This document shows positions 2,289 through 7,448 of a stretch of 7,448 bases of DNA, in pieces. Every line of letters begins with the position of its first letter. Positions within the stretch are counted from its first letter, which is position 1. This stretch comes from a virus (taxonomy: Duplodnaviria > Heunggongvirae > Uroviricota > Caudoviricetes), in the IMG/VR virus record IMGVR_UViG_2645728091_000018; one strand, written 5' to 3'. A program made the position numbers and the translations under genes. The notes beneath the pieces were generated by a model. It worked only from the letters and a program-made list of their open reading frames with translations. It did no database searches and was not told the origin of the DNA.

Positions 2289-2792
2289 ATGTTTGATTAC
2301 CAGACCTCTAAACATGCGCACTTTGATGCGGCTTGCCGAGCATTTGCAATTGAGCACAATCTGGAAGATGTGGCCGCTGCCGTTGGTATGAGGCCGCAGA
2401 TCCTGCGCAACAAACTGAACCCAGCGCAACCGCACCGCCTGACCTGTGATGAGCTTTTGGCTATCACGGATTACACAGAAGATGCGCGTTTACTTGATGG
2501 GATGTTAGGTCAGATTAACTGCCTTCCATCCGTGCCGGTAAACAATGCTACTGAAGCCAACATGCAACTGTGTGCACTTAGCGCCACTGCATGTGTGGGC
2601 GCGATTGCTGGGGAAGCCGTATCAACTGGTCATATGACCGCAGCCCGCCGTACTCAAATTCTGGATCGCGCCCGCGATGCAATCCGTAGCTTATCCGTGC
2701 TGGCTTATACAGTTGAAAGCCGTATTCACTCTGCGCCGGTTCTGGCTGCTGCGGTGGATCTGGTCACAACCAACGCTACCGGCCTGATGTGA
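2289..2792 (+). CDS. cII: CII-like lysogeny-establishment regulator (186 CII family)
   Basis: 167 aa; N-terminus MFDYQTSKHAHFDAACRAF...LRNKLNPAQPH closely resembles 186 CII as I remember it. GGGAGAGG RBS 8 nt upstream; position after apl matches 186 gene order. Confidence 0.85.
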   Translation: MFDYQTSKHAHFDAACRAFAIEHNLEDVAAAVGMRPQILRNKLNPAQPHRLTCDELLAITDYTEDARLLDGMLGQINCLPSVPVNNATEANMQLCALSATACVGAIAGEAVSTGHMTAARRTQILDRARDAIRSLSVLAYTVESRIHSAPVLAAAVDLVTTNATGLM

Positions 2793-2801
2793 GGGAACAC
2801 C

Positions 2802-2975
2802 ATGAAAGCGTTTGTCACTTACCTGAAAAAAGAATCACCAGCCATGCAGTTGCCGAGTGGTTCAACGGGCTGGATAGAACTGCCGAACGGTCAGCGCTGG
2901 AACCCTGGCCACATGTACAAATTCAATGGCCAGCAGCCGCGCCGCCCGTGGTGGTGTCGTCTGATGGGGTTATAG
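2802..2975 (+). CDS. Small hypothetical protein (57 aa), not in the ORF track; occupies the 186 fil-like position
   Basis: ATG at 2802 with GAGGGA RBS 5 nt upstream, overlapping the cII stop. Translation MKAFVTYLKKESPAMQLPSGSTGWIELPNGQRWNPGHMYKFNGQQPRRPWWCRLMGL, stop TAG 2973..2975. Codon usage is host-typical, whereas the overlapping track frame (2789..2983) has rare AGG/AGA/ATA codons and a GTG start with no SD. Confidence 0.5.
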   Translation: MKAFVTYLKKESPAMQLPSGSTGWIELPNGQRWNPGHMYKFNGQQPRRPWWCRLMGL

Positions 2976-2983
2976 GGGGCGTT

Positions 2984-3412
2984 ATGGCGATTAGCCAGGA
3001 ACAGCAAAAGCGCGGGCTGGAGCATTTAAAACAGATCCGCCGCAAATACTTCAGCGAAAGCAGTGAGGCCGCTGAATGGTGGGACAACTTAACACCAGAG
3101 TGGCGGGGTGTAGTGCTTCATGCTGCTGCGGTTACATCTGGTACTGGGGCATTTAAAGCCCACTTAAGCAAGTGCTGCTGGCGGGAGCTTTATGAACGCC
3201 TGGGCTATCGGGACATGATTCAACTGCGCCAGGGCATTTCACGGGCGCGGTTAACGTTTGAAGGTTTCGGCAGTTTACGTGACAGCGATTTTTCAAAGCG
3301 CACCGCGAACCGCCCGATCAAAAAGGCACATCCAATTTATAGCAGTAGCGGGGTGCAGATGGTGATCGCGCCTCATATCGTCCATAAGTTCCAGCAACAG
3401 GGGAATCACTAA
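2984..3412 (+). CDS. Hypothetical phage early protein (142 aa)
   Basis: ATG at 2984 (MAISQEQQKRGLEHL...) with a GGGGG run just upstream; same frame as the distal part of the track ORF 2789..3412. Stop TAA overlaps the next start (TAATG). No recognisable catalytic motif. Confidence 0.6.
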   Translation: MAISQEQQKRGLEHLKQIRRKYFSESSEAAEWWDNLTPEWRGVVLHAAAVTSGTGAFKAHLSKCCWRELYERLGYRDMIQLRQGISRARLTFEGFGSLRDSDFSKRTANRPIKKAHPIYSSSGVQMVIAPHIVHKFQQQGNH

Positions 3413-3813
3413 TGACCATTATTTCCGTTGAGGGTAAATCGTTGGGGGCTGAACTGGCTGTGTGGGGTGTCCCGCATAACTACGCTGTAGCGTTTGCAGC
3501 GAAAAGTACCAGTAAAAATGGCCGCATCGCTTTGCATCCGTTCTTCTTCAATGACACTGAACACATGACAAATCCGCGTCACTGGCTGGCTATCAATGCC
3601 GCTTTCTGGTGCTGCGTGTATCGCGAAGCGGAAAGCAAAGAAGCCCAGATAGAAGCGCTGGCGGGGATTCGTGCAATTTTCTATACAGCCGGGGCGCTGG
3701 GTGTTGGCGAGATAAAAGCGCTGATCCAGGAGTGGTGGCGGACAACCTATGAGCTTCACCTGATTCCGGCACCGAACTACTCAGCCGCCACAGTACAACC
3801 CACTTTTCACTAA
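3412..3813 (+). CDS. Hypothetical phage early protein (133 aa)
   Basis: ATG at 3412 overlapping the upstream stop, AGGGGAA 7 nt upstream; intact 133-aa ORF. No recognisable motif; function unknown. Confidence 0.6.
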   Translation: MTIISVEGKSLGAELAVWGVPHNYAVAFAAKSTSKNGRIALHPFFFNDTEHMTNPRHWLAINAAFWCCVYREAESKEAQIEALAGIRAIFYTAGALGVGEIKALIQEWWRTTYELHLIPAPNYSAATVQPTFH

Positions 3814-3830
3814 TTAACAGCCTGAATTTT

Positions 3831-3866
3831 TTGGCCACGGTTCAAGTGGCCGGGGATTCTTTTGCC
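3831..3866 (+). terminator. GC-rich hairpin followed by a U-rich tract; possible weak intra-operon terminator or attenuator
   Basis: GGCCAC (3833..3838), 7-nt loop, GTGGCC (3846..3851), then GGGGATTCTTTTG. Sits in the only sizeable intergenic gap (3814..3880) of the early operon. Stem is short and the T-run is interrupted. Confidence 0.25.
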
Positions 3867-3880
3867 TTAAGGAAACCAAA

Positions 3881-4114
3881 ATGCACATGACACGTCAGGA
3901 TTTACCCGCAACAAAATCAGGCACCGACCTGCTGGCCATGCTCACCAAAGCCACGCAGGAAGGTAAAGCCGCAGCTGCTGATCTGTGTTCCACCCGTCTG
4001 GATAAGTTAGCCACTCATGCGGCCAATGAAGGTTTAAGCGCAACGGAAATCGTTGAGTTAATCCGCGAAGAAGCCGCAGCGATTTGCAGCAAAGGAGGTG
4101 CGGCATGGAATTGA
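3881..4114 (+). CDS. Small hypothetical Ala-rich helical protein (77 aa); possibly like the small orf80-type proteins of P2-like phages
   Basis: ATG at 3881 with AAGGAAA upstream; stop overlaps the start of the exonuclease gene by 10 nt. Family assignment is memory-based and unverified. Confidence 0.5.
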   Translation: MHMTRQDLPATKSGTDLLAMLTKATQEGKAAAADLCSTRLDKLATHAANEGLSATEIVELIREEAAAICSKGGAAWN

Positions 4115-4701
4115 AAACTAAGAAATTGCAGTCTTCTATCAGTCAGCTAGCACAACAGTGGCTTGACGATGATCGCCTATTTATTGATACCGAAACCACG
4201 GGGTTGGGTGATGATGCAGAAATAGTAGAAATATGCATCATTGATAGCCATGGATTTATTCTGCTCAACACGCTTGTAAAACCCACTAAGCCTATTCCTG
4301 ATGAAGCAATTGCCATTCATGGGATCACAAATGAAATGGTCGCTTTTGCGCCGGCCTGGACTGATATATGCGGGGCAGCGGAGGAACTATTTCGGCGCTT
4401 TGGGTTTGTTATCTATAACGCCGATTTTGATCTCCGGTTAATTCGTCAGACCTACGCATTGAATGGAAGGCCTTCTGAAGGTGTGCCATGGATGCTTGCT
4501 GCTAATTCTGTTTGCGCAATGAAACTTTATGCAGAGTATCGCGGCGAGCCGGGAAAATATCACGGTTATAAATGGCATAAATTAGTTGACGCTGCTGCGC
4601 ATGAAGGAGTTGTGATCGAGGGGCAGGCACACCGTGCTTTAGCTGATTGCAAAATGACATTAGGTGTCATCAAAGCTTTAGCGCAAGGCGGTGCAAAATG
4701 A
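4105..4701 (+). CDS. DnaQ-like 3'-5' exonuclease (DEDDh family)
   Basis: Exo I motif FIDTETTGL, Exo II YNADFDL, Exo III HRALADC (H-x4-D) all present in the translation. ATG at 4105 with AAGGAGGTG RBS 5 nt upstream; the track start at 4084 is TTG. Stop overlaps the next start (ATGA). Confidence 0.88.
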
Positions 4702-5027
4702 CAATCAAAACCCACACGATAAAGATTGCGCCAAAATACCTTGATGCTGTGGTGGCTGGCCAGAAAAAGGCCGAGCTGCGTAAAAACGATCGCGGGTATA
4801 AAACCGGTGATGTTCTTTCACTGTGCGAGTGGAAGCACGGAAAATACACCGGGAGAGAGTGGGCGGCGGTTATCACCCATGTTTTGCCTGTAAATGAAAT
4901 TATCGCTGATACCGAAAACTGGGCGGTTTTGTCCATCCGTTCACTGTCGCCGCTTGAAGTGCTGGAATACATCATTTCAAACGGTGTCACTGAGGCGTTA
5001 GCAGGCGGAGGTCAATATGGCCGTTAA
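4698..5027 (+). CDS. ASCH / PUA-like domain protein (DUF3850-like), 109 aa
   Basis: [40 protein letters not shown]... matches the N-terminal pattern I recall for DUF3850/ASCH proteins. ATG at 4698 overlaps the exonuclease stop; the track start at 4647 would give a 55-nt overlap and is less likely. Confidence 0.7.
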
Positions 5028-5877
5028 AACTCCGCTTAAATGGGTGGGCAGCAAAGCCCGCCTTATGCCTAAGCTGCGTTCGCACCTTCCAGAAGGTAAA
5101 CGCCTGGTTGAACCGTTCGCAGGTTCCTGCGCCGTCATGATGAATACGGATTATGACGAGTATCTGATCGCAGATGTGAATCCTGATCTGGTTAATCTTT
5201 ATAAGGCGATGGCGTATCACACTGATGTGCTGCTGAATGAGGTGGAGATCCTGTTTTCTGCCGGTTCGTTAGGTGATGAAGAAAGCCGTGCCGTTTTCTA
5301 TTACGCAGTGCGTGATGCTTTCAATCTTTCTGGTGGTAAGGCTGGTTCTGAATCCGTTGAAAATGCTGCGCGTTTCCTGTACCTGAATCGCCACTGCTTC
5401 AATGGCCTGTGCCGGTATAACCGCCGAGGCCAGTTCAACGTCCCGTTCGGTAAGTACAAAAAGCCTTATTTCCCCGCTGATGAAATCCGCGCCTTTGCTG
5501 AAAAAGCGAAACGCGCAACGTTCATTACTGCCCACTATTCAGAAACACTCGATTTGGTTCGGGACGGGAATGACGTTGTTTACTGTGATCCGCCTTATCT
5601 GACTGATACCGCCAATTTCACCGCTTACCATGAACGTGGCTTTTCGCACATGGATCAGGGGCGGCTGGCGCGTAAGCTGCGCCGTCTGGCTGAACGTGGG
5701 ATTCCGGTTGTCGCGTCAAACAGCGATCTGGAAATGGTTCATTACCTGTACGCCGGATTTGAAGCCGTAAAGGTAAATGCGCCGCGTAGTGTTGGTGCGG
5801 CAGCTGCAAGCCCGAAAATGGCGGCGGAGCTGATTCTTAAATGGCCTTTACCGGCGACTCATGAGGCCAGCGCATGA
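5017..5877 (+). CDS. dam: Dam-family DNA N6-adenine methyltransferase (probably GATC-specific)
   Basis: Motif [10 protein letters not shown] and motif IV VYCDPPY, plus long colinear similarity to E. coli Dam as I recall it ([52 protein letters not shown]). GGAGGT RBS 5 nt upstream; start overlaps the ASCH gene by 11 nt. Confidence 0.93.
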
Positions 5878-7448
5878 CGCTGGCAATAAACGAACAATGC
5901 TATGCCGTTGATGCCTGGAGGCGGGAAACCTTCGCGCCAGGCACACCGGCAGACGCGACTATCACAGAACGCCGCCTGTGGGCTGTAAACCCGCAGGATT
6001 ATGAATGGCGATCCCGGTACCTGCATGAGATACCCGACTGGTTAGCCGGGTATTTTGGCCGTCGTTACGAAAAGCTTTTTTCTGGCCGTGACGGGCGTCG
6101 CCGTGCCAATACATTCCTGCGCAAAACAATCGGTGAGAATGTATTGCCACGTCTGCGCAAAGTGGCTGCGCGTTACTCGCTGGCCGCTGATGCTGCTGAT
6201 CTTCCTTTTGGTAAGTCGCTGGAGCACTTGCCGTCACTAGACCGTCCTGATCTTAAAAAACTGGCTGGCCAGGTATCTGGCTGGATTTCCCAGTCACTTT
6301 ATGACTTCACCGAACAGTTTGATTCCGGCACTGACGACGCCAGAGAGCTGCATCGCCGCACCCTGGAATCTTACCGCCATCTTTGTGCCTGTTGCCTGAT
6401 GCTGAATAACCAGCCGCCGTACTGGGCTGAACATGAGGCCAATGAAGGTCAACTGGAAATGCGTAAGGCGGAATCCGGGATACTGCGCATGATGGCGCCG
6501 GAATGGTGGTACCTGCGTCTTAAACGTGCGCGTGATACGCAGCGCGAGCACATGGCCATTGCGGTGGGACAGGTGCAAAAAGCGGCCAGCGCTTATGTAT
6601 CCCGCAAAACACTGGGCGAATGGATAGACCAGAAAAAGCGGAATCTGGAGTTCTTTAAAAAGTTTGATCTGCTGAATGATGAGGGGATGCGCATTGCACT
6701 GGACAGCATGGTGCACCGCAGCGTTGCAAATCCGGCGATCCGTCGCTGCGAACTAATGGTAAGAATGCGAGGGTTTGAAGATATGGCCAATGAAGAAGGG
6801 CTGGCCGGTGAGTTTTACACCATCACCGCGCCATCACGTTTCCACGCAGTACACAGCAAAGGTGGCTTTGTATCGCAATGGGATGGATGTACGCCGCAGG
6901 ATACCCAGCGCTATTTATGCGGCGTATGGGCAAAAGCACGCGCAGCGATCTCGCGTGCGGGTATTCATGTCTTTGGGTTTCGGGTTGTTGAGCCTCACCA
7001 TGACGGGACACCGCACTGGCATATGTTGCTTTTTATGCGTCCGCAGGACGTGGACACGGTACGCGATATTCTTTGCTATCACGCCAGAATTACCGATTCT
7101 GAAGAACTGCAATCTGAAAAGGCGCTGAAGGCGCGTTTTCATGTTGAAGCTATCGATCCCGCCAAAGGTTCGGCCACGGGCTACATCGCGAAATACATTT
7201 CAAAAAATATTGATGGTTTTGCGCTGGATGGTGAGCAGGACGAAGAAACCGGCGAAAACCTGCGTGATATGGCTAAGTCCGTTTCCGCGTGGGCTTCACG
7301 CTGGCGTATTCGCCAGTTTCAGCAGATTGGTGGTGCGCCGGTAACCGTCTGGCGTGAGCTGCGTCGGTTGCGGGATCAGGTACTGACAGATCGCAGAATG
7401 GATGCGGTTCTGGCCGCTGCTGATGTCGGGGACTGGGCTGCATATTGA
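5874..7448 (+). CDS. A: Rolling-circle replication initiator endonuclease (P2 gpA / 186 A family)
   Basis: HUH motif in EPHHDGTPHWHMLLF and paired active-site tyrosines in GYIAKYISKN (Y437, Y441; Y-x3-Y spacing as in P2 A). ATG overlaps the dam stop (ATGA). ORF ends with TGA exactly at the window edge (524 aa). Confidence 0.88.
   Translation: MTLAINEQCYAVDAWRRETFAPGTPADATITERRLWAVNPQDYEWRSRYLHEIPDWLAGYFGRRYEKLFSGRDGRRRANTFLRKTIGENVLPRLRKVAARYSLAADAADLPFGKSLEHLPSLDRPDLKKLAGQVSGWISQSLYDFTEQFDSGTDDARELHRRTLESYRHLCACCLMLNNQPPYWAEHEANEGQLEMRKAESGILRMMAPEWWYLRLKRARDTQREHMAIAVGQVQKAASAYVSRKTLGEWIDQKKRNLEFFKKFDLLNDEGMRIALDSMVHRSVANPAIRRCELMVRMRGFEDMANEEGLAGEFYTITAPSRFHAVHSKGGFVSQWDGCTPQDTQRYLCGVWAKARAAISRAGIHVFGFRVVEPHHDGTPHWHMLLFMRPQDVDTVRDILCYHARITDSEELQSEKALKARFHVEAIDPAKGSATGYIAKYISKNIDGFALDGEQDEETGENLRDMAKSVSAWASRWRIRQFQQIGGAPVTVWRELRRLRDQVLTDRRMDAVLAAADVGDWAAY

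Follow-up and report, generated by a model that had tools for sequence, protein, structure and literature searches.

ASCH domains have been predicted to discriminate N6-methyladenine (m6A, here also 6mA) on the grounds of their repeated fusion and operon linkage to N6A methyltransferases (Iyer, Zhang, Aravind 2016, PMC4738411), a prediction that is still experimentally unconfirmed (PMC11037411). The ASCH octapeptide has been defined as GxKxx[E/T/S]xR, and its Lys and Glu residues are required in TthASCH, EOLA1 and TRIP4 for deacetylation of N4-acetylcytidine (ac4C) in tRNA (bioRxiv 10.64898/2026.02.27.708502). Here we analyze a gene for an ASCH protein of the DUF3850 type, found on the + strand at positions 4698..5027 of a 7448-bp stretch of viral DNA (IMG/VR record IMGVR_UViG_2645728091_000018; the whole stretch is referred to as the window) and followed directly by a gene for a Dam-family adenine methyltransferase. 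The initial annotation of this locus, made from the sequence alone, took the overlap between the two genes to suggest a stoichiometric partnership of their products. Our comparison of gene neighborhoods points to a tie between ASCH and Dam of a different kind: contiguity with Dam-type genes recurs in separate groups of the DUF3850 family, and the dependence is one-sided, in that the ASCH clade of the window goes with Dam and Dam does not need ASCH.

The systems described by Iyer et al. (2016; PMC4738411) show the same association, a PUA-like ASCH module beside a Dam-type methyltransferase, and led to the same inference regarding m6A. They concern ASCH domains in general, for example in cyanobacterial Dam-ParB-HTH-ASCH fusions, whereas the window carries a stand-alone DUF3850 protein in a P2-like prophage. 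The locus itself is not a new system; what is new here, for the DUF3850 subfamily, is that the association is quantified and is seen in both gene orders, and that the dependence is asymmetric. ParB-CTPase-DUF3850 fusions of (pro)phages with ParA adjacent have also been reported (PMC12704722) and are recovered in the present sample. They have the domain and a phage DNA-handling context in common with the window protein, but DUF3850 is there the C-terminal domain of ParB_N proteins of ~420-540 aa accompanied by ParA, whereas the window protein stands alone with Dam. Phage P2 orf91 and the 'ASCH domain protein' of Yersinia phage P37 are DUF3850 homologues (44% identity) that likewise abut gene A; unlike the window gene they lie downstream of A, encode ~150-160 aa, belong to clade c2 and have no Dam in the fetched locus, and in P37 a C5 methyltransferase gene is found two genes away.

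With regard to the protein itself, the structure 3IUW ('activating signal cointegrator', Enterococcus faecalis V583) represents the same family (phmmer 2.3e-8) and has the motif K-x-x-E-x-R-K-N-D-R in common with the window protein. It is a structural-genomics entry with no assigned function, to which the window protein adds a C-terminal helix and a disordered tail (residues 85-109). The ac4C amidohydrolases YqfB, TthASCH and EOLA1 share with the window protein the beta-barrel and the octapeptide Lys/Arg, and the GKER subtype of the octapeptide is common to the window protein, TthASCH, EOLA1 and TRIP4. The window protein differs from YqfB, TthASCH and EOLA1 in being shorter and in its context of phage DNA replication rather than RNA metabolism, and its resemblance to them amounts to ~15% identity and a template modeling (TM) score of ~0.5. 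Compared with YqfB, Glu26 replaces Thr24, and no counterpart of the general acid Glu74 can be assigned because alignments of the window protein with YqfB and with the ASCH model extend over its N-terminal ~60-80 residues only. The dyad residues of the GKER deacetylases are present (K23, E26), at a modest structural similarity (2DP9: E 0.037, TM 0.44). YTH and EVE readers, including those of type IV restriction (YTH-McrB, EVE-HNH VcaM4I), resemble the window protein in the PUA-like barrel and in the idea that a pocket takes up a flipped modified base, and the similarity (E 0.01-0.2, TM 0.44-0.52) stays below the family level. The type IV readers are host-encoded beside a nuclease, whereas the window protein has no fused nuclease or NTPase and is phage-encoded beside a methyltransferase.

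The DUF3850 gene and the fold of its product

The open reading frame (ORF) noted in the initial annotation is present, running from ATG 4698 to the TAA codon at 5025-5027 and encoding 109 aa. It is not a chance ORF, since its product has 70 close homologues at 50-97% identity, the closest from Salmonella enterica, and belongs to a family that comprises 13,912 clusters at 50% identity in an exhaustive profile search (E <=1e-3). Public records already label the gene 'DUF3850 domain-containing protein' or 'RNA-binding protein'. The match to Pfam DUF3850 (PF12961; 81.3 bits against a cutoff of 22.9, E 5.8e-23) covers the whole 77-position model and stops at residue 80; the more general Pfam ASCH model (PF04266) also matches above its cutoff of 21.2 (25.3 bits, E 2.5e-5), and PHROG 986, named 'RNA-binding protein', matches at 3.5e-37.

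An AlphaFold2 model of the protein, built with 36 homologues, has a mean predicted local distance difference test score (pLDDT) of 82.7 and consists of strands at residues 5-10, 25-29, 39-46, 49-64 and 75-83 and helices at 12-19 and 85-102. The second helix (4950..5003, + strand) is an addition to the 77-residue DUF3850 core and is present, with variable sequence, in close homologues. It is followed by a tail predicted to be disordered (residues 103-109, the AGGGQYGR region; pLDDT <50), which together with the stop codon occupies 5004..5027 on the + strand, lies within the translation-initiation region of Dam, and varies among homologues in both length and sequence. In a Foldseek search of the PDB the model's top match is 3IUW, the only solved DUF3850 structure (E 8e-9, target-normalized TM 0.92, root-mean-square deviation 1.5 A over 83 columns), followed by YqfB as next-best and by PH0355, ZmASCH and TTHA0113. 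A search of BFVD with the same model returns uncharacterized DUF3850/ASCH phage proteins only.

The ASCH octapeptide GxKxxExR is found as G21-Q-K23-K-A-E26-L-R28 (4758..4781, + strand) and is of the GKER subtype. Close homologues all keep E26 and R28 and nearly all keep G21 and K23, and across 56 diverse DUF3850 members the Lys and Glu are invariant and the Arg nearly invariant. In alignments the octapeptide coincides with the motifs of YqfB and PF0469, with Glu26 at the position of Thr24 of YqfB. The ASCH/PUA-like fold that the initial annotation had proposed is thus borne out by the Pfam profiles, by the model with its Foldseek matches and by the octapeptide; the protein is a minimal DUF3850 beta-barrel.

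Other searches with this protein were largely negative. There is no Pfam YTH or EVE match, and EVE structures (2GBS, 1ZCE) are found by Foldseek only at E 0.014-0.2. In PADLOC there is no significant defense-system match, the only similarity being to PDC-M11B (E 0.0025 over 23 residues), and in NCBIfam there is no meaningful match. A phmmer search of PDB sequences aligned residues 5-65 with several MutL N-terminal domains, not significantly (E 0.7-1.8); this similarity, of note given the connection between Dam and MutHLS, was judged to be chance.

Contiguity of ASCH and Dam genes

The gene downstream of ASCH (5017..5877, + strand) encodes an orphan N6-adenine DNA methyltransferase of the Dam family (D12 class) of 286 aa, in agreement with the initial annotation. 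It matches Pfam PF02086 with 229 bits (7.9e-68), TIGR00571 'dam' with 273 bits (cutoff 114.85) and E. coli Dam (2G1P) with 1e-62; the DNA-contact and DPPY regions are conserved, and the translation carries EPFAGS (the FxGxG motif for S-adenosylmethionine) and CDPPY. By this similarity it is probably, like E. coli Dam, specific for GATC. The best PADLOC match is 'orphan methyltransferase', the neighbors are ASCH and gpA and not an endonuclease, and no restriction endonuclease gene was found in the window by ORF list and Pfam scan. GATC sites in the window are neither depleted nor enriched (35 observed versus 35.1 expected from a maximal-order Markov estimate), with one site in ASCH, six in Dam and nine in the partial gene A, and there is no sign of their avoidance or clustering within the window.

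Dam starts at ATG 5017, so that the 3' end of ASCH and the 5' end of Dam overlap by 11 nt (5017..5027, + strand), as originally described. A GGAGG Shine-Dalgarno sequence for Dam, read directly from the sequence, is located at 5007..5011 on the + strand, 5 nt upstream of the ATG and within the coding sequence of ASCH. Overlaps occur at five or six of the seven junctions of the window operon: besides ASCH/Dam these are exonuclease/ASCH (4 nt, ATGA), Dam/gpA (4 nt), DUF2732/exonuclease (10 nt), the ORF pair 2789-3412/3412-3813 (1 nt) and, only if the doubtful GTG 2789 is the real start, cII and the next ORF (4 nt). Because overlaps are so common in this operon and Dam has its own GGAGG, the ASCH/Dam overlap is weak evidence for a partnership; it is ordinary packing for phage early operons and nothing special to this pair.

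Evidence from gene neighborhoods carries more weight. We collected 93 loci of close relatives (ASCH identity >=59%) from one scan of representative genomes and one scan of IMG/VR, and Dam is found immediately downstream of ASCH in all but one of them. Many of these relatives keep ASCH-Dam although their Dam is only ~50% and their gpA only ~37% identical to those of the window. Within this clade the flanks vary while the contiguity is kept, the gene upstream being DUF2732, the exonuclease or others and the gene downstream of Dam being gpA, a C5 methyltransferase, a gene resembling phosphoadenosine phosphosulfate (PAPS) reductase or others. The sole exception (locus L096, 3980-7170) has a DUF3850 gene of the window clade followed by baseplate genes (HP1_ORF34, Phage_base_V) instead of Dam-gpA, an arrangement that probably reflects a deletion or a misassembly (assembly join).

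A wider sample was obtained by scanning IMG/VR with two degenerate motif patterns and adding the earlier loci, giving 330 DUF3850 loci in 114 clusters (single linkage at 70% identity). It is limited to members with the two sequence motifs and dominated by IMG/VR, and the neighbor-joining tree on ~80 residues is poorly resolved. Neighbors were taken as shadow-filtered ORFs of >=100 aa within 2.5 kb, clustered into families, with contiguity defined by distance, and each cluster contributes one locus to the statistics. Among the co-directional contiguous neighbors of DUF3850 the D12 methyltransferase recurs most often, in 15 clusters, compared with seven for gpA, four for ParA and three each for C5 methyltransferase and YopX. 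A Pfam scan of representatives of 117 contiguous-neighbor families gave one D12 and one C5 methyltransferase family among the 25 listed of 59 matched families, the remaining families listed being mixed DNA-metabolism genes. Typical DUF3850 neighbors are SSB, DnaB, VRR-NUC, RdgC, NinB, Rep and ParA, which place the family in modules of DNA replication and partition and not in RNA metabolism.

D12 genes account for 14 of the 103 contiguous large ORFs versus 4 of 1234 elsewhere in the same loci (odds ratio, OR, 48; p 3e-13). When the two large Dam-linked clades are collapsed to one locus each, the enrichment becomes 5/89 versus 4/1151 (OR 17, p 2e-4). Of the clusters with a D12 gene within 2.5 kb, 15 of 17 have it contiguous, as against 3 of 18 for C5 methyltransferase (OR 37.5, p 3e-5). 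The order ASCH->Dam is found in the window clade and in the distant cluster c37. The reverse order, Dam->ASCH, is found in the P2-like clusters c6, c53, c83 and c86 (for example as exo-Dam-ASCH, Dam-ASCH-C5 methyltransferase and Dam-ASCH-PAPS reductase-gpA), in c40 as Dam-ASCH-gpA, and in Bacillota prophages as Rep-Dam-ASCH. D12 contiguity spans at least five groups of the DUF3850 family, and the placement of ASCH, now to one side of Dam and now to the other, cannot be put down to a simple slot on its left. The Bacillota loci, from prophages in metagenome-assembled genomes (L011 and L013, 1968-4252), are compact, with Rep (REP_ORF2-G2P, HUH-like), D12 and DUF3850 followed by HNH and TerL; the P2-like arrangement has its counterpart here, in an unrelated host phylum, in a trio of Dam, ASCH and an initiator of the rolling-circle type.

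The reciprocal relationship was examined in the 80 IMG/VR loci whose Dam is most similar to that of the window (50-94% identity). In 65 of the 80 no DUF3850 was found within 2.5 kb, nor within +-8 kb in a six-frame search with a profile hidden Markov model (HMM), where the median flank searched was 4.9 kb to the left, up to the end of the prophage, and 8 kb to the right. These Dam phages might keep a DUF3850 elsewhere, such as behind gene A in the manner of P2, but this was accordingly rejected for the 65 loci within +-8 kb. Loci without ASCH include some in which Dam is 93-94% identical to that of the window, with the same gpA and DUF2732, and Cronobacter phage ESSI-2 has DUF2732-Dam-A and no ASCH. 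Where a DUF3850 is present in the Dam-centered sample it is contiguous with Dam in every case (15/15). Conversely, 99 of the 114 DUF3850 clusters have no contiguous D12, so co-occurrence is not reciprocal. In the comparison of DUF3850 with methyltransferases that the initial annotation had suggested as a check, D12 is the commonest contiguous neighbor, and ~87% of the clusters have no adjacent methyltransferase.

Accounts of the association

Because the link is one-sided, the ASCH protein is probably an optional accessory downstream of Dam and not a Dam subunit. The account we favor, to which we would give about an even chance, is that of an optional Dam-dependent accessory acting on methylated DNA. 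The protein would work downstream of Dam on adenine-methylated (GATC) DNA, with the conserved pocket (K23/E26/R28) holding a flipped base. As a binder it would read 6mA and could mark methylated sites or protect them, from 6mA-dependent nucleases, MutH or SeqA for instance, and such a reader role is plausible; alternatively it may chemically process 6mA, as the invariant Lys/Glu dyad of catalytic type keeps an enzymatic role equally open. We infer from sequence and context that the substrate is DNA and the recognized base 6mA, and any choice between binding and catalysis would have the same basis. A more specific version, in which DUF3850 is a Lys/Glu-dyad enzyme on the product or substrate of Dam in DNA that converts, removes or adds to N6-methyladenine, has in our view only a slim chance of being correct. 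If it were, Dam and ASCH would form a two-step cassette for adenine modification or erasure directed against restriction or mismatch-repair surveillance, and a DNA-acting DUF3850 enzyme would be the first DNA-directed catalytic activity for the ASCH domain.

Several observations weigh against the account of a Dam-dependent accessory. About 87% of DUF3850 clusters are without a contiguous methyltransferase, and homologues occur in T1-like, Enterococcus and Listeria phages as well as in Kayfunavirus T7-like podoviruses (e.g. LS2, Vec13, EPr2), where a homologue at 35-38% identity lies between tail-tubular and tail genes, a late-gene context with no obvious tie to DNA modification. Because most clusters lack a methyltransferase and the contexts are varied, the basic activity of DUF3850 cannot depend on a phage Dam. 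Among 20 long DUF3850 proteins there is no methyltransferase domain, only ParB_N, DUF551 or unannotated extensions. The independent Dam associations are few, about 3-5. The D12 HMM was built from the neighbors themselves, so divergent D12 genes elsewhere may be undercounted, and the sample is restricted by the search pattern and by its dependence on IMG/VR. The likeness to genuine m6A readers of the YTH type is at fold level only (YTHDF2: E 0.05-0.2, TM ~0.45-0.46), and the experimentally shown activities of ASCH proteins are ac4C amidohydrolase and RNase, not 6mA binding.

In one alternative ASCH is a Dam-independent enzyme, a small amidohydrolase ('eraser') or nuclease whose K23/E26 dyad would act on a modified base, such as ac4C, in RNA, tRNA or free nucleosides, and adjacency to Dam results only from both accessory genes being parked in one variable slot. 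The GKER octapeptide is intact and invariant, GKER-type ASCH proteins (TthASCH, EOLA1) deacetylate ac4C in tRNA via the Lys/Glu dyad, YqfB is the next-best structural match after 3IUW, the PHROG label reads 'RNA-binding protein', and most family members have no methyltransferase neighbor and occur in phages of hosts without Dam, all of which would suit such an enzyme. Yet the enrichment of contiguity is specific to D12 and absent for C5 methyltransferases, the contiguity with Dam is kept in both orders and under changing flanks, and every Dam-centered locus that has a DUF3850 has it next to Dam. Moreover, DUF3850 falls short of the tested ASCH enzymes in length (its alignment with the 103-position ASCH model is confined to positions 2-61, and the region of YqfB Glu74 has no clear counterpart), and its context is DNA replication and partition, not translation. 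We regard this alternative as rather unlikely. Less likely still is the absence of any functional link, the adjacency being due to inherited synteny or to hitch-hiking in a slot that is prone to recombination and has Dam-gpA as its right boundary, and the few other Dam-adjacent cases to both gene types living in phage replication modules. The slot is indeed a mosaic in which the exonuclease and ASCH are present or absent independently and a C5 methyltransferase or PAPS-reductase gene is inserted in relatives, the Dam-linked DUF3850 genes fall mainly into two clades and few independent events, and C5 methyltransferases also lie within 2.5 kb in 18 clusters. However, the enrichment survives the collapse of these clades, contiguity at equal proximity is much more frequent for D12 than for C5 methyltransferases, and ASCH is not confined to one side of Dam, being located between Dam and gpA in L279 and L298 and downstream of Dam in Bacillota (L011) too.

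The stoichiometric complex of the initial annotation, with ASCH and Dam held at 1:1 by translational coupling and ASCH as targeting or specificity subunit, would fit with the stop/start overlap being kept in 105 of 106 ASCH->Dam loci (4 or 11 nt; 4 nt in 72 loci and 11 nt in 31), with the retention of the pair as a unit across divergent P2-like phages, and with the finding that ASCH alleles >=90% identical always accompany Dam alleles >=70% identical. Against it, Dam occurs without ASCH even at 93-94% identity, as does the Dam-A pair of ESSI-2; Dam is of the same family as E. coli Dam, a monomer, and comes with a GGAGG of its own; overlaps are generic in the operon; the reversed order Dam->ASCH occurs; and the overlapped ASCH tail is predicted to be disordered and is variable. 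Furthermore, Dam alleles >=90% identical pair with ASCH alleles only 45-72% identical (67 pairs), which argues against a co-adapted protein-protein interface. We consider such a complex very improbable. What stands of the original proposal is a functional tie between ASCH and Dam, and it stands on comparative genomics (D12 contiguity with OR 17-48, in both orders) and not on the overlap from which it had been drawn.

The locus is an ordinary and already annotated member of its family, chiefly of value as a convenient system in which the m6A prediction for ASCH domains can be put to experiment. In P2-like prophages of Salmonella and E. coli a stand-alone ASCH protein of 109 aa is found beside a well-understood GATC Dam, and nature supplies isogenic-like variants with and without ASCH as well as both gene orders. 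Should the protein turn out to bind or process 6mA, a function would be assigned to a phage family of very large size (about 14,000 clusters at 50% identity), and a new layer would be added to the use of orphan Dam methylation by temperate phages; if it does not, the case would be a caution against guilt-by-association inference for PUA-like domains.

The window, the variable slot and the wider family

The window is identical to the IMG/VR contig IMGVR_UViG_2648501498_000023 and ~90% identical in nucleotide sequence to Escherichia phages ESSI2_ev040 and ev015 (Peduoviridae). ORFs were called by a heuristic and genes were assigned by profile searches (Pfam, PHROG), giving the order int, CI, cox, cII, three ORFs, DEDDh exonuclease, ASCH, Dam and gpA; judged by this gene content, the window is the early operon (lysogeny and early region) of a P2/186-like enterobacterial prophage. 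Profile searches identify the integrase (297-1346, - strand), the CI repressor (1339-1917, - strand), a Cox/Apl-like gene (1977-2258, + strand) and CII (CP76; 2289-2792). The two ORFs that follow, 2789-3412 and 3412-3813, match only PHROG families of unknown function. The start of the former (207 aa) at GTG 2789 is doubtful and the true start probably internal, because the match to phrog_33841 covers residues 76-204 only. A 57-aa ORF at 2802-2975, without a match in NCBIfam, sits where phage ESSI2_ev129 has a DUF2724 gene after cII.

The segment between DUF2732 and gene A is a mosaic slot for DNA modification and processing, in which relatives carry varying sets of DEDDh exonuclease, ASCH, Dam, C5 methyltransferase and PAPS-reductase-like genes. 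Its conserved left border is the DUF2732 gene (3881..4114, + strand; Pfam PF10809, 2.8e-12), which adjoins Dam in relatives without exonuclease and ASCH, and its conserved right border is the P2-type replication initiator gene A, an HUH nickase gene (5874..7448, + strand, cut by the contig end; Pfam Phage_GPA 1.9e-105, PHROG 91). The DEDDh (DnaQ/RNase T-like) 3'-5' exonuclease (4105..4701, + strand; Pfam RNase_T 3.3e-18, PHROG 192) is an optional gene of the slot and takes part in a permuted order, exo-ASCH-Dam in the window and exo-Dam-ASCH in L299 and L332. Its start is most likely ATG 4105, with AAGGAGG 6 nt upstream, and not the TTG 4084 of the mechanical ORF list. In relatives, just upstream of or around gene A, the slot also holds C5 cytosine methyltransferases and PAPS-reductase-like genes and behaves as a small DNA-modification island, examples being L001 (ESSI2_ev129; 4474-5484), L224 (6140-7057), L279 (6114-7211) and L003 (P37; 209-1216 and 4448-5476).

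Elsewhere in the family, fusions of ParB_N (CTPase-fold) to DUF3850, 415-540 aa in length, were found in L099 (3542-4870), L132 (1198-2814), L142 (4020-5306), L182, L199 and L201, with a gene for a ParA-type ATPase upstream of several of them. In T1-like phages, as in L004 (Tunavirus SH2, 2995-4082), DUF3850 overlaps a downstream gene of 267 aa without a Pfam family, and this gene is a conserved partner in six loci of the cluster.

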